A stretch of 62,514 nt of DNA, counting the filler. It is 4 parts of 4 records of this genome, joined end to end, with 100 filler letters (N's around TTAATTAATTAA, not from the genome) between each part and the next. Parts side by side here need not be neighbours in the genome. Positions count along the whole stretch, not along the records: positions 39,233 to 49,015 come from SRR20825019_1207; 3 more parts are not named here. One strand, given 5' to 3'. Positions 39,133 to 49,115 of this stretch are shown piece by piece. The notes beneath the pieces were generated by a model that ran no database searches, was not told the origin of the DNA, and worked only from the letters and a program-made list of their open reading frames with translations. Position 1 is the first letter of the stretch, and every line of letters starts with the position of its first letter. A program made the translations under genes and the position numbers.

Positions 39133-39232
39133 NNNNNNNNNNNNNNNNNNNNNNNNNNNNNNNNNNNNNNNNNNNNTTAATTAATTAANNNNNNNNNNNN
39201 NNNNNNNNNNNNNNNNNNNNNNNNNNNNNNNN
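39133..39232. other. Artificial contig linker
   Basis: N44-TTAATTAATTAA-N44. Confidence 0.99.
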
Positions 39233-39351
39233 CATCCCGGTCATGAAGTTCGAGAAGGGGGCATGAGCCCCCTTTTCCTCTCGCGGGGAAATCGAGGTGG
39301 AAGAGCAGGCTTCCACCTGATATTTTGGAAGAAAGCCTGCTGGATCACGAT

Positions 39352-39609
39352 ATGTCTCACTCTGTCGCTCAACTTGAGGTGTTCCCGACCGACCTGCAGA
39401 TGCGGCGGATCGATCCAGCCTGCAACATGCGGCGGTTTTACCGCATGAGCATTCAGCCCGATCTCTTTGGGGGCGCCAGCTTGGTGCGCGAATGGGGCAG
39501 CATTGGCGCGCGCGGGCAGATGATGATTGAGCAGCATCCAGATGAAGGGCGCGCCGTAACCGCGCTGATGAAACTTGCGGCGATAAAGAAGCGGCGGGGT
39601 TATGCATGA
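39352..39609 (+). CDS. Stand-alone WGR-domain protein
   Basis: RRIDPACNMRRFY...DLFGGASLVREWGSIG...KKRRGY (WGR motif reads WGS here). Confidence 0.85.
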   Translation: MSHSVAQLEVFPTDLQMRRIDPACNMRRFYRMSIQPDLFGGASLVREWGSIGARGQMMIEQHPDEGRAVTALMKLAAIKKRRGYA

Positions 39610-39659
39610 TGCGCGGCCGCGGTTCGAAAAGCGGGCAGACACAGGAAAACGAGGGGGAG

Positions 39660-39890
39660 ATGGCACTCGACACTGACAAGATCGATGATGCGGCTCTCGC
39701 GATCCTTAGCCTGACGCTGCATTACGGCGATCAGGTCTGGAAGGGAATCGATTGGGCCATCACCAACCGGCTTTTCGAGAAAGGCCTGATTTTTGATCCC
39801 AAAAACAAGGCGAAATCGTTGAGCCTGACCCCAGAAGGGGTCGCGCATGCGCGGGAAATTCTCGCGCGGGAGTTCAGCAAGGCCGAGTGA
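39660..39890 (+). CDS. DUF6429-like small winged-helix protein
   Basis: DKIDDAALAIL...WKGIDW...RLFEKGLIFDPKNKAKSLSLTPEG; RBS GAGGGGGAG. Confidence 0.75.
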   Translation: MALDTDKIDDAALAILSLTLHYGDQVWKGIDWAITNRLFEKGLIFDPKNKAKSLSLTPEGVAHAREILAREFSKAE

Positions 39891-40277
39891 CGGGCGGCTT
39901 TGCGGGACCTTACAGTCGTTCGCTGCATCTGCGCGCAATTTGCTCGCATCCGCATTTGCAGCATCAGCAACGCGCAGGGCGGCAAGCGGGCGTTCGCTGC
40001 GCTCCCGTCGAAAATCACCTGTCCTTCTGAAAGCAGTCATTCATTTGGGCGTAGAAACCAGTCGGCCGATCGGATGATCCGCCGCACTACACCGAGGCGC
40101 CTCCAGCAGAATCAACCTTGAAGCTGTTGGAAAGCCAGAGGGAATAGCCGAAAATCCCCGTTCTCTCTAACCCTACATCTTGTATCATGTTGCCTCAACC
40201 GCAATATCCGTAGTATGCTTTTGGTGAGCTGTTGCGTCAGCGATGGTGCGTATTATTGACCAATACTGAGGCAAACA

Positions 40278-41411
40278 ATGTTTGATGAACCTAAGGTGAT
40301 GTTCTGGCCAGTCGGCACAGGGGATAGCACAACTGTTGTCGTCCAGAATGGCATTGTTTTGCAGGTTGACTTGCGAGATCTTCATAGCGCTGGCGATGCA
40401 GACGATGATCATGCTGCCTTGGTCGACAAACTCGTAGAAAACCTCCCCACAGTGAACGGCAAACCATATCTTTCAACCTTTGCTTTGACCCACCCTGATA
40501 AAGATCACATTCAGGGCTTCCACGATTTGCTTGATCGCGTCACGATTGGCGAAATCTGGTTTACCCCGCGCGTCTTCATCGAGAACGATCAGGATTTGTG
40601 CGATGATGCAGTAGCCTTCAAAGAAGAAGCCGAGCGCCGTGTTCAAGAAACGATCAACTCAGGTGGTGACGTTGGCGCAGGTGATCGGGTCAGACTCATC
40701 GGATACGATGCCCTTCTCAAAGAAGATCACTTCGTCGGCTTCCCGGAAGATCGCCTGACTGTTCCTGGCAACTCGATAACAGAAATTGACGGTGTCGATT
40801 ACGAGGGAGACTTCAACGCGTTCATCCATGCACCATTCGCGGAAGAAACTGATGGTGACCGCAACAACACAAGCCTTTGCATGCAGGTTGTTCTGGGTGA
40901 TAACCCTTCCAAAGGGGGCGTTCTCCTGTTCGGCGACATTGCCTACCCGCGTCTGCGCAAGATCATCGACAAGACCAAGGAGGCTGGCAACGAGGAGTAC
41001 CTCGCCTGGAAAGTGTTCCTTGCACCGCATCATTGCAGCAAGTCGGCCATGTACCAAAAGGAAGGCGACAAAGAAGTTCTCAAGCAGGATATTCTTGATG
41101 ATCTGGCGGAGTATCAGGTTGATGGCGGCGTGATTGTCGCCAGCAGCGAAAAAATTCCCTTGCAGAATGCATCTGGCGAAAATCCACCGCACGCAAAAGC
41201 GAAGAAACGCTACGAAGAAATCGCTGATGGAGGTTTCCTCTGCACTCACGAGGATGGAGAAGACGGAGAGCCCCTGGTCTTTGATGTTTCCGACGGCGCG
41301 CTAGACGCTCCAGAAGTTGCGCAAGCGGCCGCTGCAAGGAAACTTGCCGATGCGGTTGATGATGCGCGCGGATCAGACAGCCCGCCCTCGGAACAGGTCG
41401 GGTATGGCTGA
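40278..41411 (+). CDS. ComEC/Rec2-type metallo-beta-lactamase-fold hydrolase with C-terminal ...VGYG tail
   Basis: VGTGDS, THPDKDHIQG (HxDxDH), NNTSL, FGDI, APHHCS; low-complexity linker ending in Gly. Confidence 0.88.
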   Translation: MFDEPKVMFWPVGTGDSTTVVVQNGIVLQVDLRDLHSAGDADDDHAALVDKLVENLPTVNGKPYLSTFALTHPDKDHIQGFHDLLDRVTIGEIWFTPRVFIENDQDLCDDAVAFKEEAERRVQETINSGGDVGAGDRVRLIGYDALLKEDHFVGFPEDRLTVPGNSITEIDGVDYEGDFNAFIHAPFAEETDGDRNNTSLCMQVVLGDNPSKGGVLLFGDIAYPRLRKIIDKTKEAGNEEYLAWKVFLAPHHCSKSAMYQKEGDKEVLKQDILDDLAEYQVDGGVIVASSEKIPLQNASGENPPHAKAKKRYEEIADGGFLCTHEDGEDGEPLVFDVSDGALDAPEVAQAAAARKLADAVDDARGSDSPPSEQVGYG

Positions 41412-43686
41412 TTTCACGACGAGAGGGCAACAACTTGCACTCGACCAACTCCAAGATATCGCGGCAGCCAGCGATGATACGATTGATATCGTTGACGTAA
41501 AGCCACCTGCTGGCCAAGGCCTTTCTCTTGTTATTCGCGTGTCTATTGATACGAGCGGATACGCTTATGAAGATGGCGGCTTCGACTATAGAAGGCGCGA
41601 GCCGCTGAACATTTTCGTGTCGCCGCATTTTCCAGTGGAACCGCCAAGGGTCTACTTCGCACACAAGCGCTTTCTCGGGCGCGCCCATGTGCAGTGGGGT
41701 GACTACCTCTGTTTGTACCAGGCAACGGATGTCGAATGGGCATCGCAGGATGGAATGTTTGGCCTGATCAAACGTCTGGACGATTGGCTGCGTGATGCTG
41801 CCCGCAATCAGCTTGACCCGGAGGATGCACCTCTTCACCCGCCAGTTGAATACACTTCCTCCGACATCAAACTTGCGGTCGAGATCGATGCGCCAGAGAT
41901 TGAAGATGGGAAATCCTTCTGGCTTGGAACAGGAAAACTAACCAGACGGAATGACCATTGCTTTGATATTTCAGAATGGTCCGAGACGCCGAGCTCGCTG
42001 CCGAAGGATGAAAAGTTTGCCGCAGTCGTGCTGCTCAATCAGGCCATGCCGATGGAGTACCCTGACACGATCAGCAAACTCATCACGACGCTGGAAGCTC
42101 GCGGAGTTCCCTTCGATCTGCTGTTCTCAATCCTGAAAATATTTGCCCTGTGCCAACCTGATAACGAACCGCTCTACTTCATTCTTGGCGCGCCCATGAG
42201 GCGAAGAGCGGCGGATGAGCCATTACGACAGCACCTCAGCGCCTGGAAGATGGATGCGGAGTATGTCAAAGCTCTCCAGGGCATAATTCTGGAAGAGAAT
42301 ACCGAGGCAACGCTGGAAGCCTGGAAGGTCGTTCTTGAGTGGGCAACCGAAGCCAAGACCGAATGGTGCCGCGTCTACGATAACCGTCCCGAGGTTACCT
42401 TTCGTCGGGACCAAGGCACCAAAGCCAGCTGGTTTCTTGGCAAGAAGATTGCGCTGTTGGGTTGTGGCGCGCTCGGCTCTCATATCGGTGAATACCTCGC
42501 TCGCGCTGGAGCCGAAAAAATTCGCCTGGTCGATTATTCAGCCGTCAATGCTGGCATCCTTGTTCGGCAGCAATTCCGAAACTATCAAGTCGGTTACTCA
42601 AAACAAAGCGCCTTGTCTGTACAGCTGCGTGCGATCAACCCAAAGGCAGACATCGATCATGAATTCGCCAACCTAACAAAAGGTTGGCCAGAGGCACTTA
42701 ATATCAGTGATTTCGATCTTGTCATCGATGCGACGGCGTCAAGACGGGTTGCCACCGCCTTGCAGCTTGATCTGACAAAGCACAATGATGTGCCGCCGAT
42801 GCTACGATGCGCGATCAGCGCAAATGCATCAAAAGGTATCGCCACTTTGAACATGCCTGGTTCAGCTTTTGGCCCTGCCGACCTATTGCGTCGCACCAAA
42901 GTCGCCGCAATGTCTGATAGCGGTTTGACAGATTTCGCCGAAGCGTTTTGGCCATTCGATCAGCACGAGCGAGGGTTTCAACCCGAACCAGGTTGCTCCG
43001 AGCCTACCTTCGTGGGATCAGCTGCAGATATCGCCTTTTTCGCATCCTCATTCTTCAACTTTGCAGCTTCGGCCTTGAGGGAGGGCGGTGACTCAAAGGC
43101 AACAGCATGTTTCGTTCGTGTGTCACATGATGACGGCTCAATGTCCTCGCATCTTGTCCCGCTTTGCCAACCCAGTATCCACGTCGAGGCTCATCATGGA
43201 TACCGCGTCCATCTCTCTCATCGCGCGCAATCAGCGATAGACAGTGAGATCAAGTCAAACGCCCGTACGGGCAGCGCTAAGGACGAAACTGGGGGTATCC
43301 TCCTTGGCGAAATTGATGATGCGCTGGGAATAATTTCGATTGATGTGGCCACAGGACCGCCGCCAGACAGCAAAAAGTCTCCCGAGCTTTTTGAGTGCGG
43401 CATTGAAGGGACGCACGCGCTTTGTGAATTCCACGCAAAAGAAAGCGGCAACTCAACGAAGTTCGTTGGAGTCTGGCATACGCATCCTGTTTCCATACCA
43501 AAGCCAAGCATGGTAGATCTTGGCGCCATGGCGCAGATACTCCATCTACAGGAAAAGACGCCGCGTCATGTTGTGATGCTGATCGTTGGTCATGCAGCCA
43601 CGCGTCCGACCTGGCGCTTTCATCTGTTCAGGCGCAATGAATTTCAAGTCGTTACCCTTGCCGCTGGGGAGAGTGTCGATGAGTAG
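41404..43686 (+). CDS. E2 - E1(ThiF) - JAB triple-fusion ubiquitin-like conjugation/deconjugation enzyme (Cap2+Cap3-like)
   Basis: E2 FPVEPP...AHVQWGDYLCLY; E1 LLGCGALGS, VD, RQ, DATAS, PEPGCSEPTF; JAB ETGGILLG, WHTHP...PSMVD. ATG overlaps the upstream stop by 8 nt. Confidence 0.92.
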   Translation: MADFTTRGQQLALDQLQDIAAASDDTIDIVDVKPPAGQGLSLVIRVSIDTSGYAYEDGGFDYRRREPLNIFVSPHFPVEPPRVYFAHKRFLGRAHVQWGDYLCLYQATDVEWASQDGMFGLIKRLDDWLRDAARNQLDPEDAPLHPPVEYTSSDIKLAVEIDAPEIEDGKSFWLGTGKLTRRNDHCFDISEWSETPSSLPKDEKFAAVVLLNQAMPMEYPDTISKLITTLEARGVPFDLLFSILKIFALCQPDNEPLYFILGAPMRRRAADEPLRQHLSAWKMDAEYVKALQGIILEENTEATLEAWKVVLEWATEAKTEWCRVYDNRPEVTFRRDQGTKASWFLGKKIALLGCGALGSHIGEYLARAGAEKIRLVDYSAVNAGILVRQQFRNYQVGYSKQSALSVQLRAINPKADIDHEFANLTKGWPEALNISDFDLVIDATASRRVATALQLDLTKHNDVPPMLRCAISANASKGIATLNMPGSAFGPADLLRRTKVAAMSDSGLTDFAEAFWPFDQHERGFQPEPGCSEPTFVGSAADIAFFASSFFNFAASALREGGDSKATACFVRVSHDDGSMSSHLVPLCQPSIHVEAHHGYRVHLSHRAQSAIDSEIKSNARTGSAKDETGGILLGEIDDALGIISIDVATGPPPDSKKSPELFECGIEGTHALCEFHAKESGNSTKFVGVWHTHPVSIPKPSMVDLGAMAQILHLQEKTPRHVVMLIVGHAATRPTWRFHLFRRNEFQVVTLAAGESVDE

Positions 43687-44854
43687 CAAGTCTTTCAAAT
43701 TCGGACTTGCGCTATCAGGCGGTGGCTCGCGAGCGGCAGCGTTTCATCTTGGATGTATGAGGGCTTTGAATGATCGCGGCATTCTCGATCAGGTCCTAAC
43801 GCTTTCCACTGTATCCGGCGGAAGTGTGATTGGCGCGCTTTGGGCATACTCGGACGATAGTTTCGAAGAATTTGATCAACGCATGCAAATTATTCTGCGC
43901 AAAGGGCTGAAAAAGGGGATCATCCGATACACCCTCTTTTCTGGCGAAGCGCCGAAGATCGTTGGGACGATCTTCACATCAGGCGTTCTCGCGGCGCTAT
44001 GCTCGTCGGCAAGGCTTCTGATTTCTGCGCTTGGGCTTGTCGGCATCAAACATGCGAGCCTGGATTCATTGAAGCTACGTCTTCAAGCACCGCTTCCCAG
44101 ATTTGCGAGCAGAACAACAGCCTTTGCACGATTTCTTGACGATGAGTATTTCAAGGGAACCCTCCTCAAGGGGGTCAAACGCCAGAACCTGAAAATCATT
44201 ATCAACGCGTCAGAGCTCAGAACCCAATCGGCATTTCGCTATGGCTCAATGGAATCTGGATGTTGGAGATTTGGAACGCTAACCGAAGACACGTTAGTCG
44301 CAAAAGCTGTTGCGGCCAGTGCCTCGTTTCCAGCCATCCTTCCAGCTTTGGATGAACAGCAGCGCTACATAAAGCGCGGTGAAACGGCCACGCATCGAAC
44401 AATCGTCAGTGACGGCGGCGTCTATGATAACCTTGGGACGAGTTGCCTCATCCCTAAGCGCGATAGCAGTTTTAGCACGAATGTGAATGAGACTGATTTC
44501 ATTATTGCCTGCGTCGCAGGCCAGGGCATTCCCGATGGTTCCTCGCTACCATATTTTTGGCCGTCCCGAATGATCGAGACGATTAACACAATTCATCGTC
44601 GGACTCATTCAATAACATTCGATCTCTTGCACCGTCTCAAGGAAAGCGGTGAGATTAAGGGTTTTCTTTTGCCGTATCTTGGGCAGAACGATGCTGCCCT
44701 GCCGTGTCCGCCCCCTGACCTCGTAGCGCGTGACAAGACGTTTGATTACCCAACGAACTTCGATCCGATGTGTCAGGAAGACTTGGAGTTGATCGCAAAG
44801 CGTGGTGAACAGCTCACCAAAAACCTAATCGAGACATATCATCCTGATCTTTGA
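43679..44854 (+). CDS. Patatin-like phospholipase
   Basis: LALSGGGSRA oxyanion motif, TVSGGS nucleophile, ASASFP, DGG; 8-nt overlap with the upstream gene. Confidence 0.92.
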   Translation: MSSKSFKFGLALSGGGSRAAAFHLGCMRALNDRGILDQVLTLSTVSGGSVIGALWAYSDDSFEEFDQRMQIILRKGLKKGIIRYTLFSGEAPKIVGTIFTSGVLAALCSSARLLISALGLVGIKHASLDSLKLRLQAPLPRFASRTTAFARFLDDEYFKGTLLKGVKRQNLKIIINASELRTQSAFRYGSMESGCWRFGTLTEDTLVAKAVAASASFPAILPALDEQQRYIKRGETATHRTIVSDGGVYDNLGTSCLIPKRDSSFSTNVNETDFIIACVAGQGIPDGSSLPYFWPSRMIETINTIHRRTHSITFDLLHRLKESGEIKGFLLPYLGQNDAALPCPPPDLVARDKTFDYPTNFDPMCQEDLELIAKRGEQLTKNLIETYHPDL

Positions 44855-44884
44855 AAGATTGATTGGCGCATAGCCAGCGCCGTC

Positions 44885-46114
44885 CTAGTCTCGGTGAAGT
44901 TCAAAATGGGCCCAGTAGTGATTCACTTTATCGACTTGGACAGGTCGAAATGGCCAGAGATCACGCAAGACATCTGCATGCGGATGTCCAAAACTGCGAT
45001 GCCCAGGATCCGAGCTAAAGATACTGAGCCCGGGTTCGATCATGGATGCAAGGCCGGTAAACCAATTGTTCTTTGAGCCATGATGGGGCACTTGAAACAC
45101 TGTCGGCTGGAAAGATCGTTTGTGTCCCAAATATCCGACCAAAGACTGCCATTGATGGTCCGTACTTAGATTACCATCACCCGTATAGATAACTGAGCCG
45201 TCAAATTTTTCCTCGAACCACGGCCAGTTGGTCCGCCAATGGCCGATGGGACCTCCATATAAGAATAGGCTAAGATCGTTGAGCTGAGACTTCGGGAATG
45301 TCCGCACGTAATGATCCTTCAGTTCCCGTAGCGCATCCTTGCGATCATTGTCGGAGCTGTTTAGGAGGGCATCGCGCAAATCATTCACTCGCTCGACAAA
45401 CCTCGCTACGTTCTGTGGCCTAGTCGTTGGATCGTTGTAGGGCACGAATTCCCAGAGGCTAGGGATGAACGCCGTGCCACGCGGATGCATCATCAGCATT
45501 TGGTAATGATGCCTTGCGCCTGACAGATATGACATCCATTCGGCCATCCAGTCTTGGTCGCCTTTCTCCTGGCGGATCTCTGCTTCGGCTTCAATCTTCA
45601 ACGGCAGATCGCCATCAGGGTCAAAGTCAGGCTCGCCGCCCCCGTCCGGATCAGCTGGTCCGTCACCATCAGAAAACGGCACAAAGACGATTTGATTGAA
45701 CCCGTCACCGGCTTGATCGACTAAGTATTGCGCTGGGTCGGTATAGAACGCAAATTCGGGATCGTCAGGTTCGAGCCCCTGCGCATATCCGATGGCGAGC
45801 CGGTGCCAAAGCGGGGCCCAAGGCAGCATGAGGGTGCGCGTACCCACATCGTTGAGCAACTTCACCATCCCGCTGATATGGTCAGCGTCAAAATGAGAAA
45901 TCACAACAAGATCTAGCCTGCGTCCATCTACGCGGCTCTGGAACTTACCAAGAGCGTTCCTCACCAGCCGTTGTGACGAGGATGTGCCGCAATCATAAAC
46001 CCATTGAAAATCCGGTCTCGAATGATGGTTAAAAGATGAACCAAGGGTAAGCCGCCCTGCGGAAAATAAGCCTTGGCCTACTGGGTGGAAACGATACTGG
46101 ACATGTATTTTCAT
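44885..46114 (-). CDS. Second ComEC/Rec2-type MBL-fold hydrolase
   Basis: PVGQGLFS, YDCG, SHFDADHISG, YTGD, QVPHHGS, FGHPH. Confidence 0.88.
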   Translation of the reverse strand: MKIHVQYRFHPVGQGLFSAGRLTLGSSFNHHSRPDFQWVYDCGTSSSQRLVRNALGKFQSRVDGRRLDLVVISHFDADHISGMVKLLNDVGTRTLMLPWAPLWHRLAIGYAQGLEPDDPEFAFYTDPAQYLVDQAGDGFNQIVFVPFSDGDGPADPDGGGEPDFDPDGDLPLKIEAEAEIRQEKGDQDWMAEWMSYLSGARHHYQMLMMHPRGTAFIPSLWEFVPYNDPTTRPQNVARFVERVNDLRDALLNSSDNDRKDALRELKDHYVRTFPKSQLNDLSLFLYGGPIGHWRTNWPWFEEKFDGSVIYTGDGNLSTDHQWQSLVGYLGHKRSFQPTVFQVPHHGSKNNWFTGLASMIEPGLSIFSSDPGHRSFGHPHADVLRDLWPFRPVQVDKVNHYWAHFELHRD

Positions 46115-46679
46115 CAATAACCTTCAAAAACTTGCAACTATTTTCTGTGACTCCAGACTAGCAACTTTTCCAGCCAACCCAATAGGCCAATCGTGACCGA
46201 TTGCATGACTCTGCAAGTTGCTGTGAAGCTCACCAATGACCGGAAGTGGCGCGCTCCGGCGGAACGTGGTTGGATGGATGTTGAGCCTTGCACCGATGAC
46301 CGCTTTGGTTCGCTGCGTTTGCGAGATTGATGGCATGGTTGAAGGACAGGTTTGGGCCGAACACGATGCTGCACCTGCGAAATAGGCTTCCATGCTGCGA
46401 TGTGCGTGACTGTAATGGTGAAGGTTTCGACATGGGCAAGCCCCGTAAGCGGGGCCGGGCTGCTGAGGCTCCGCCCTGAATTCTGACCTTGCTGTATTCC
46501 TGTGCCAATACGTCTTGGCCTGTCTCATCCTGAGCCATCCCAAGACGTTTGCCACATGGTCGCCTTCACGATCCGCTTTCAGCCCTGACGGGTCTGCATC
46601 CCTCTTGCAAGGCGGACGCTGCCGCCGGGCGAAGCCGAGGGGCTTTAGTCTTCGCCACCTGGCATAAGATTCAGAAGGG

Positions 46680-46949
46680 CTATGCGTCTGGCTTCTGGTC
46701 GAACAGAATAACGTGCGCGCCTTCTTCACTGTCAGGGTTGCCTACCAGCACGAACGGCATATCCGACCCGTTCTTCTCGTAGAGACGGCGGTATTTCATC
46801 TGGCCGCTGAGCGGATCGCGCACTTGGTCATAGCGAAAGCTGTGCTGAACGCCGTCTTCGATCCAGGCCTTGACGCCATCGGGGGTCACCAGTGCAAGCG
46901 GCGCGCCGTCAAGCAAGATTGTCTCGCCAACGTTGAAAATCTCTTTCAT
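46680..46949 (-). CDS. Hypothetical protein (89 aa)
   Basis: AGGAGA upstream; protein-like composition. Confidence 0.65.
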   Translation of the reverse strand: MKEIFNVGETILLDGAPLALVTPDGVKAWIEDGVQHSFRYDQVRDPLSGQMKYRRLYEKNGSDMPFVLVGNPDSEEGAHVILFDQKPDA

Positions 46950-47108
46950 CTCATGGGTCTCCTATCGGTCTTCTTTGGTAGCGTTACAAACCGTCGTCGC
47001 CTTTGCAACGATCTCTGCCCCGCGTGTTCCCTCTCTCGGTGTCATTGCCCCGGATCACAATCGTGTCCTGCTCCGGTCGCTCGCGAGCATTTTAGGGCTG
47101 GAGGCGGT

Positions 47109-47288
47109 CTATCCCGCGTCCTCATAGGGCTCGTACCTCAGGTTCGCGCCGTCCGCCTGATCAAAGTCATCGGACCATCTGGTACGGCGCATGCCGCAGC
47201 TCCATTGGAATACGACGCCGACCTCGACGTCTTCACCGTTTACCGACGCCCAAATGACTTCGACGGGGTAACCCGCATAATTCTTCAT
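47109..47288 (-). CDS. Hypothetical protein (59 aa; not in the ORF track)
   Basis: AGGAGA RBS; MKNYAGYPVEVIWASVNGEDVEVGVVFQWSCGMRRTRWSDDFDQADGANLRYEPYEDAG*. Confidence 0.6.
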   Translation of the reverse strand: MKNYAGYPVEVIWASVNGEDVEVGVVFQWSCGMRRTRWSDDFDQADGANLRYEPYEDAG

Positions 47289-47331
47289 GCTCTTCTCCTG
47301 ACCTCCATTTGGTCGGAGCCGCAGTAATCAG

Positions 47332-47811
47332 GTGGCAGGTATCTGCCTGTACCTATATATGCTTGGCCACCACAAAACGGAGTTTAGTAACTTGCTTTAC
47401 AGGCCTCTACATATTGCGCTCTTTCTGGGCGCGGCTTCATCCTCCGTCGCGGCCGAGTGGGAGATCGGCTTGTCGCGAGGTCTGGACACCTATGCTGCGA
47501 CTGCAAACGACGGGACTTTGCTCTTAGTTTGCGACCCAGACCGTGTCTACAACCCAAACGTGAGCCATGCGTACTTTTTGTCGCGTCAAAGCGATGGCAA
47601 AGCGCCACAACGCATTGTCTTTCTCGCGGCGACCGGAGAGCAGGCTGCCTTTTCTGTGCAGGACGGGATCGCAACGCAACGGGATGCTGATCCTTCCGAA
47701 TGGGCACAGCTCATCGATATGATCGAGGCGGGCGGTCAGATCGCTGTCGTGACCGCACGCGATGCCTTTACGCTGGATCAGGACGCGCTGCCCGGGCTTC
47801 GATGCCGCTGA
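47332..47811 (+). CDS. Hypothetical exported protein (start uncertain)
   Basis: Signal-like IALFLGAASSSVAAEW; Cys near each end of the mature part. Confidence 0.55.
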   Translation: MAGICLYLYMLGHHKTEFSNLLYRPLHIALFLGAASSSVAAEWEIGLSRGLDTYAATANDGTLLLVCDPDRVYNPNVSHAYFLSRQSDGKAPQRIVFLAATGEQAAFSVQDGIATQRDADPSEWAQLIDMIEAGGQIAVVTARDAFTLDQDALPGLRCR

Positions 47812-48457: not shown

Positions 48458-49013
48458 TGGCAGCGTCCACCATGGCCTCGATGTCGCAAAGGACATCGCT
48501 GCACAGTGTCAGGGCTGAGGAAAGATGCCCCGCTTGCAACCGATGACGACGATCTTGTTCATAAATGTCCCGCACATATCCCAGCGGTCCGGTCAGCGGC
48601 ATGCGCTGGATCGCAGTGAGATGGGGCACCGGCGTGGGCAGAAGTGGCAGGGTTGAAATCACCTCGAAAACCTCAAGGTCCTGCCGGTGAACCCTGCGTC
48701 TTGCCGCATCACGCTCAAAGTCATCTCCTGCGGTCACGAAATCGATCGCGCGTTTGTCCGCGTTCATCAATACCGCTGAAAACAGCGGGGCGGGGTCATC
48801 CGGCCCGAGGGTCTCGATCATGCGTATAACCCATGTAAGGGTTTTCAGGGCCGCGACGAAATCCGATTGTACCGGCACGGCCGGCACCAGGATCATGTCG
48901 CAGGCCAGCGCCAGTGTTTCGGTGTCGGGGTGCTCGCCGGGGCGGGTGTCGATCAGAACCAGATCAACACCTTCAGCCTCAAAGCTGTCCAGCGCGTGGT
49001 AAAGGCCTTCAAC
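48450..49013 (-). CDS. ParA/VirC1-like ATPase, 5'-truncated by contig end
   Basis: Walker B DLVLIDTRPG, then ACDMILVP...DF...LKTLTW. Confidence 0.75.
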   Translation of the reverse strand, partial: VEGLYHALDSFEAEGVDLVLIDTRPGEHPDTETLALACDMILVPAVPVQSDFVAALKTLTWVIRMIETLGPDDPAPLFSAVLMNADKRAIDFVTAGDDFERDAARRRVHRQDLEVFEVISTLPLLPTPVPHLTAIQRMPLTGPLGYVRDIYEQDRRHRLQAGHLSSALTLCSDVLCDIEAMVDAANG

Positions 49014-49015
49014 GG

Positions 49016-49115
49016 NNNNNNNNNNNNNNNNNNNNNNNNNNNNNNNNNNNNNNNNNNNNTTAATTAATTAANNNNNNNNNNNNNNNNNNNNNNNNNNNNN
49101 NNNNNNNNNNNNNNN
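49016..49115. other. Artificial contig linker
   Basis: N44-TTAATTAATTAA-N44. Confidence 0.99.

Follow-up and report, generated by a model that had tools for sequence, protein, structure and literature searches.

A glycine-ended MBL-fold enzyme as candidate modifier in a divergent 6A-MBL operon with a patatin-like third gene

In the stretch of DNA analyzed here (the window; 62,514 nucleotides, filler included), an MBL-fold protein, MBL1, ends in Gly directly before the gene for an E2-E1-JAB protein. This arrangement raises the question whether the Gly is the point at which the whole enzyme is joined to other molecules in the manner of ubiquitin, as an earlier note made from the sequence had proposed, or whether the tail is conserved for another reason.

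A divergent 6A-MBL locus

Three genes on the + strand, encoding MBL1, E2-E1-JAB and a patatin-like protein, form a tight operon in which both junctions overlap by 8 nt, and a second MBL gene converges on it from the other strand. The features to which we refer below are the following.

40278..41411, + strand: MBL1 (6A-MBL enzyme), 377 aa; NF058524 match, AF2 model, Foldseek match to ComEC
41367..41408, + strand: flexible C-terminal tail of MBL1, residues 364-377 (RGSDSPPSEQVGYG); AF2, conservation, motif counts
41397-41408, + strand: V-G-Y-G motif of MBL1, its last residue being Gly377, the proposed site of adenylation and attachment
41404..43686, + strand: E2-E1-JAB (cap2_3 fusion), 760 aa; Pfam, PADLOC, NCBIfam NF058523
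41710-41712, + strand: codon of E2 Cys103, within E2-E1-JAB
42994-42996, + strand: codon of E1 Cys531, within E2-E1-JAB
about 43273-43620, + strand: JAB domain of E2-E1-JAB; Pfam Prok-JAB
43679..44854, + strand: patatin-like phospholipase, 391 aa; Pfam Patatin 2.8e-17
44885..46117, - strand: MBL2 (second MBL), 410 aa, convergent; Pfam Lactamase_B 9.9e-08

MBL1 and E2-E1-JAB are thus same-strand neighbors in the window, and the earlier statement that the E2-E1-JAB gene directly follows the MBL tail is confirmed by the 8-nt overlap (ATGGCTGA) of the MBL1 stop with the E2-E1-JAB gene, the ATG of which lies at 41404, a start position consistent with the N-termini of 18 homologues. In a promoter and terminator scan of 39800-46400 the signal was indistinguishable from that of shuffles.

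MBL1 matches the NCBIfam profile NF058524.1 (6A-MBL_enzyme) over residues 9-338 with 293.2 bits (cut-off 220; the profile does not include the tail) and E2-E1-JAB matches NF058523.1 (6A-MBL_cap2_3) with 388.6 bits (cut-off 320). By its sequences, the locus belongs to the known anti-phage 6A-MBL system, of which it is a divergent member: as in that system, an MBL-fold protein is encoded directly upstream of a single E2-E1-JAB chain, both proteins score above the equivalog cut-offs, and the distribution is sporadic and mobile. Because the plasmid versions from E. coli (pSE11-2), Acinetobacter, Ruegeria and C. perfringens score 344-443 bits as against 293 for MBL1, we place the window on a divergent 6A-MBL branch characterized by a V-G-[FY]-G tail. 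Unlike catalogued 6A-MBL, this branch has a patatin as third gene, often fused; the versions from E. coli and Acinetobacter have a divergent upstream gene for a WYL-domain regulator, whereas none was seen at the window. For annotation, both core genes can be named as 6A-MBL components.

It was reportedly van den Berg et al. (2024) who gave 6A-MBL its name and tested it. The operon corresponds to type 6a in the work of Iyer, Burroughs and Aravind (2006), who described it as 'usually with two genes' (PMC1779556). In the available parts of a review (PMC13276650) and of a preprint (10.1101/2025.09.30.679545), 6A-MBL counts as a validated defense, with reference to van den Berg et al. 2024, and is listed among P. 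aeruginosa jumbo-phage defenses. A statement in the Discussion of a 2024 preprint, available in part, has it that MBL pathways conjugate their enzyme via the fused E2-E1 (PMC11601596). These four sources (PMC1779556, PMC11601596, PMC13276650, 10.1101/2025.09.30.679545) are the only literature that we found on the link between MBL and Cap2. The reading of the earlier note, in which the whole enzyme serves as the ubiquitin-like moiety, is therefore supported by analogy as right in kind, but it was already in print as a statement (PMC11601596).

Fold of MBL1 and conservation of its aromatic-glycine end

The AF2 model of MBL1 (28-sequence alignment) has a pLDDT of 84.9 and a pTM of 0.87. Its best Foldseek match is the MBL domain of ComEC (9ic4, E 6.7e-12), followed by the phosphorylcholine esterase Pce and tRNase Z-like proteins; a beta-grasp fold is absent from the model. 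The metal site H72-x-D74-x-D76-H77, H184, D220 and H251/H252 is invariant in the 28-sequence alignment. Pfam matched no domain in MBL1, and PADLOC returned weak MBL models only. According to its model, MBL1 is a ComEC-like binuclear metallo-hydrolase fold and, because this fold is combined with invariant metal-site residues, it looks like an active phosphodiesterase, the likeliest predicted activity of which is probably that of a nuclease.

The final two strands of the modeled fold span residues 333-343 and are followed by a helix at 346-363; residues 364-377 are without secondary structure, with a block pLDDT of 59 and then 46. Because strands and helix extend to residue 363, only the last 14 residues constitute a flexible tail. 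The earlier note had taken the longer stretch encoded at 41280-41411, i.e. residues 335-377, for a flexible Ala/Ser/Pro-rich linker; the flexibility holds for residues 364-377, whereas the 'Ala-rich linker' is mostly helix in the AF2 model. The terminal Gly itself is as described, given that the open reading frame at 40278..41411 reads ...ARGSDSPPSEQVGYG (…SPPSEQVGYG*) followed by TGA.

R364, G365, P370 and G377 are invariant in the 28 aligned MBL1 sequences, and the pattern persists in a larger sample of 79 genome loci from many phyla, in 78 of which (L012 included) the C-terminus is readable. Every one of them ends in, or close to, [F/Y/H/Q/L]-Gly, the residue before the final Gly being F in 62, Y in 13, and H, Q and L in one each. 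G-x-G is found in 74 of the 78, the Gly at -2 being missing in the other four, and Val stands at -3 in 71. Among the best 120 database protein homologues the sequence ARGSDxPPxxKVG[FY]G is almost constant. The earlier note had made its proposal depend on conservation of the Gly in homologues; the residue is present in 78 of 78 loci and also in subfamilies with only about 28-30% identity, the plasmid members of which end in APRAG-VSNQ, PMPHG-AS, PKTYG, PKTYG-K, APRAG, SPRAG, PLSHG-SD and PVGFG-R. In viral contigs a single related locus was found (L088), which has the same three genes and the tail QVGFG-D.

A search of 1.84 billion cluster representatives yielded 579 related clusters, and 67 of the 150 best were represented by full-length proteins, stemming from 50%-identity clusters. 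A small-residue tail pattern was found in 58 of these 67 representatives (from the 150 best of 579 clusters) compared to 6 of the 120 control proteins, which were taken from the MBL2 family. Within the same 67 (150 best of 579), 47 end in aromatic/His-Gly plus 0-4 residues, six in aromatic-Ala and five in Ala/Leu-Gly plus 0-4 residues, and nine fall outside these patterns, three of the nine having the motif with a longer extension. Based on these sequence counts, the glycine of MBL1 is conserved far beyond chance. The aromatic-Ala representatives (P0260, P0272, P0276, P0331, P0353 and P0375) mirror the Gly/Ala alternation reported for CD-NTases.

The Gly is not always the last residue. In the 78 loci it is followed by no residue in 16, one in 11, two in 12, three in 19, four in 19 and six in one; of the 16 without an extension, eight are near-copies of the window, with 93-100% protein identity. 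Across relatives the extension is not conserved, and the MBL1 of the window has none. Because up to six residues come after the Gly, most relatives are putative pro-forms in need of trimming; by its sequence, the MBL1 of the window needs no trimming and already ends at the Gly.

The E2-E1-JAB partner and the function of the tail

Pfam finds in E2-E1-JAB the domains Prok-E2_A (13-166), ThiF (348-448) and Prok-JAB (624-739), in that order, and PADLOC assigns it to E1-E2 (PDLC00857, 3.7e-92) as well as to JAB models. In 19 aligned sequences His95 and Cys103 of the E2 are invariant, as are the Gly-loop G353/G355/G358, R388, Q389, K400 and Cys531 (in PEPGCS) of the E1 and the JAMM residues E628, H692, H694, S702 and D705; D442 of the E1 is kept in at least 90% of them. 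Among solved structures, Cap2 is the nearest to it in sequence (7to3, E 6.4e-10). Judging from these residues, the protein has every catalytic element required for a Cap2/Cap3-type cycle, and it is encoded by the next gene after MBL1 in all 73 loci that extend 2500 nt or more downstream.

The closest comparison is with type II CBASS, in which ligase and peptidase are homologous to those of the window (PADLOC E1-E2 and JAB models; Cap2 7to3) and in which the substrate is likewise an enzyme that lacks a ubiquitin fold and has a disordered tail with a small last residue. Similarly, type II CBASS often includes the patatin effector CapV, and the window operon contains a patatin-fold hydrolase with Foldseek matches to CapV and CapE. 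Unlike in type II CBASS, the counterparts of Cap2 and Cap3 are fused in one chain and there is no evident generator of a nucleotide signal; searches of MBL1, E2-E1-JAB, the patatin and MBL2 against Pfam, PADLOC and NCBIfam gave no match to a CD-NTase, and an MBL hydrolase stands in its place. According to the available part of PMC10097602, the terminal residue in CBASS is Gly/Ala and the penultimate residue is variable; thioester formation, conjugation and defense all depend on the terminal Gly/Ala, and Cap3 cleaves exactly after it. In contrast, the Gly of 6A-MBL type usually has residues after it and a conserved aromatic residue before it. In the Cap2-cGAS structures, as described in the accessible part of 10.1101/2022.03.31.486616, the final residues of cGAS occupy the adenylation site of the E1 and are linked to AMP.

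Combining the tail with the ligase, we suggest, with a probability of roughly 0.75, that MBL1 is the substrate enzyme of the 6A-MBL operon and that it would undergo Cap2-type conjugation through Gly377, reversed by the JAB domain. The direct basis of this proposal consists of sequence features, conservation, gene order, gene fusions and family membership, and from the analogy with the systems above we infer adenylation, thioester formation, conjugation, trimming and a role in defense in the window organism. In this model, the E1 domain of E2-E1-JAB would bind the MBL1 tail and adenylate the carboxylate of Gly377, MBL1 would move as a thioester to Cys531 of the E1 and then to Cys103 of the E2, and it would be joined to a target nucleophile, most likely a lysine. 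The JAB domain would undo the bond between MBL1 and target and, in relatives with 1-6 extra residues, would first trim the pro-form. Because the Gly is not the last residue in most relatives, JAB would have to trim besides deconjugating; with the Gly as last residue in no more than 16 of 78 loci, the proposal, unlike the cycle of CBASS, depends for most relatives on this predicted trimming. The translationally coupled patatin phospholipase would be a second hydrolase of the same module.

Several predictions follow from this scheme. On a target modified by MBL1, the tryptic remnant on the modified residue would be the 13-residue GSDSPPSEQVGYG. The existence of pro-forms predicts that a JAB-dead variant would abolish conjugation in some members and raise it in others, the window copy being among those in which it would be raised. 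The window locus would be a further case in which a whole enzyme is the 'ubiquitin' of a bacterial E1-E2 cascade, and 6A-MBL would be useful for asking what conjugation is for, since cyclic-nucleotide signaling does not interfere.

Ubiquitin and Atg8 precursors need a maturing protease, and the end of Atg8 consists of an aromatic residue and Gly followed by a short extension that is removed by a peptidase. The relatives of MBL1 that carry a short extension after aromatic-Gly resemble Atg8/LC3 of eukaryotic autophagy, with Atg7, Atg3 and Atg4, in this respect, and the accessible part of 10.1101/2022.03.31.486616 states that, among eukaryotic E1s, ATG7 is the one closest to the E1 of families 6a/6b. 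Unlike Atg8, the putative modifier is a 377-aa enzyme with no beta-grasp, and the peptidase is a JAMM metalloprotease rather than a cysteine protease. The bacterial ubiquitin-like pathways Bil and Bub also comprise E1, E2 and JAB components, and there JAB is able to cut pre-proteins and in that way to expose a reactive C-terminus, according to the available part of PMC11601596. However, in Bil and Bub the modifier is a dedicated Ubl with a beta-grasp fold, and E1 and E2 are two separate proteins, whereas the window operon has no Ubl gene.

The conservation of the tail could in principle be a by-product of nucleotide constraint, the last codons of MBL1 overlapping the ribosome-binding site or start of the next gene. 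As this explanation would have it, E2-E1-JAB has its closest in-frame start codon between -4 and +10 nt from the last Gly codon in 73 of 75 loci, and because the start codon is so near, the residues that follow the Gly are an out-of-frame reading of the first codons of the next gene. In 64 distinct DNA tails, however, all codons for Val (GTC 23, GTT 15, GTA 11, GTG 10), Gly (all four at each position, 21/17/16/10 and 21/18/14/11) and Phe (TTT 33, TTC 23) occur, and the motif is kept where the next gene begins past the stop (L050 at +22, L047 at +2 and a Deinococcus plasmid at +2). Because synonymous codons vary freely, selection acts on the amino acids of the tail; nucleotide constraint is almost certainly the wrong explanation, and on codon usage we rejected an overlap or ribosome-binding-site artefact as the origin of the motif. 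Alternatively, the tail may be a docking or regulatory peptide that tethers MBL1 to E2-E1-JAB or masks the MBL active site non-covalently and is never adenylated or ligated. The motif of about 14 residues (R364, G365, P370, V374, G375, G377) is indeed more conserved than a single attachment residue needs, and most relatives continue past the Gly. Yet docking would not call for an invariant Gly-loop in the E1, invariant Arg/Gln/Lys residues for adenylation and an invariant cysteine in both E1 and E2; moreover, AF2 leaves the tail unfolded against MBL1, and a C-terminus with a small residue (Gly, or Ala after an aromatic residue in six of the 67 representatives from the 150 best of 579 clusters) is the signature of E1 substrates in the accessible part of PMC10097602. 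We consider a docking peptide improbable.

In a third alternative the motif is a JAB cleavage site only, so that trimming would activate or mature the MBL while the substrate of E1 and E2 is something else. Such motifs are where JAB peptidases cut, and 62 of 78 loci have extensions of 1-6 residues after the Gly; but the window and 15 other loci without extension still have both the motif and the JAB domain, and the operon offers no other candidate modifier. There is no small beta-grasp ORF between the genes, which share 8-nt overlaps, and the patatin ends ...YHPDL. It is highly improbable that the motif serves cleavage alone. The patatin as modifier was rejected on its own account, given that the family consensus ends P-x-L without Gly.

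Patatin gene, second MBL and mobile surroundings

Of the 69 loci in which 3700 nt or more are available downstream, 62 have a patatin gene after E2-E1-JAB; leaving out near-copies of the window, the count is 55 of 62. Of the 66 loci with both, 27 (within L036-L079) have E2-E1-JAB and patatin as a single open frame of about 1160 aa with four domains. In the ligase tree, which was made by a quick method and is midpoint-rooted for drawing only, the window lies in the half with separate genes and the fused forms lie in the other half; well-supported branches force at least two changes of fusion state, and parsimony gives five. In the distant subfamilies, the Ruegeria plasmid also has a patatin as third gene, whereas those of E. 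coli and Clostridium have two genes only.

The patatin residues G14-G15-G16-x-R18, S46 and D245-G246-G247 are invariant in the alignment, the AF2 model has a pLDDT of 89.8, and its Foldseek matches are PlpD, patatin, CapE and CapV. No PADLOC model at E 0.01 or better and no NCBIfam model matched the protein, and a look-up in the Protein Atlas returned generic patatin clusters only. The patatin is the conserved third gene of the clade to which the window belongs and probably an effector. Residues 90-120 (window 43946-44038; IVGTIFTSGVLAALCSSARLLISALGLVGI) form one long modeled helix that is strongly hydrophobic on reading. This modeled helix hints at membrane association.

These data can also be read as a distinct patatin-coupled branch of 6A-MBL in which the Atg8-like MBL end would be matured by JAB and an Atg7/Atg3-like E1-E2 would then attach the nuclease to the patatin or to a membrane lipid and not to a soluble protein. 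If so, nuclease and phospholipase would meet at the membrane upon infection. We regard this reading as rather doubtful.

What the comparison adds to 6A-MBL is the family-wide aromatic-Gly/Ala end, the frequent pro-forms and a patatin that was repeatedly fused to the ligase. In the papers that we consulted, we found no description of a patatin component, of the fusion or of a pro-form. The interest of the locus rests mainly on the pro-form tails and on the coupling and fusion to patatin, and the novelty of both depends on the content of van den Berg et al. 2024.

The second MBL of the window ends ...FELHRD, and thus, as the earlier note had it, has no Gly tail. MBL2 and MBL1 have only the HxDxDH motif in common (BLASTP E 0.091), and MBL2, which belongs to a separate family of 660 proteins, is found in only six of the 79 loci, all near-identical. 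On these grounds we rejected the idea that MBL2 is another substrate or belongs to the core of the system. An Acinetobacter baumannii plasmid has a second MBL of its own, a different one, after cap2_3 (L082 7980-9050); the two second MBLs are only weakly alike, over the metal motif (BLASTP best E 3e-04).

The surroundings of the operon are those of a mobile block. Window positions 39233-47408 (about 8.2 kb) are 100% identical in nucleotide sequence to contigs of Chachezhania antarctica (L004), two Sulfitobacter strains (L001, L002) are 100% identical to the block over shorter spans, and a Tateyamaria plasmid (L007) carries a copy with 90% identity; on nucleotide identity, the block has moved between genera recently. 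Within the block and just upstream of the operon lie genes for a WGR-domain protein and a DUF6429 protein (window 39325-39890), overlapping by 4 nt. Runs of X (masked or unknown bases) occur in ORF translations at about 39140-39230 and about 49010-49065 of the window, and one of them interrupts nrdE, downstream of nrdH and nrdI.

In a Stappiaceae MAG (L017 1124-5789), a TIR-domain protein (Pfam TIR_2, 1.1e-12), a second E2-E1-JAB and a patatin are encoded directly upstream of MBL and E2-E1-JAB. This second E2-E1-JAB is more distant, and on reading its E1 region is without the PEPGCS cysteine motif. The upstream trio may be a sister system in which a TIR protein occupies the position of the substrate.
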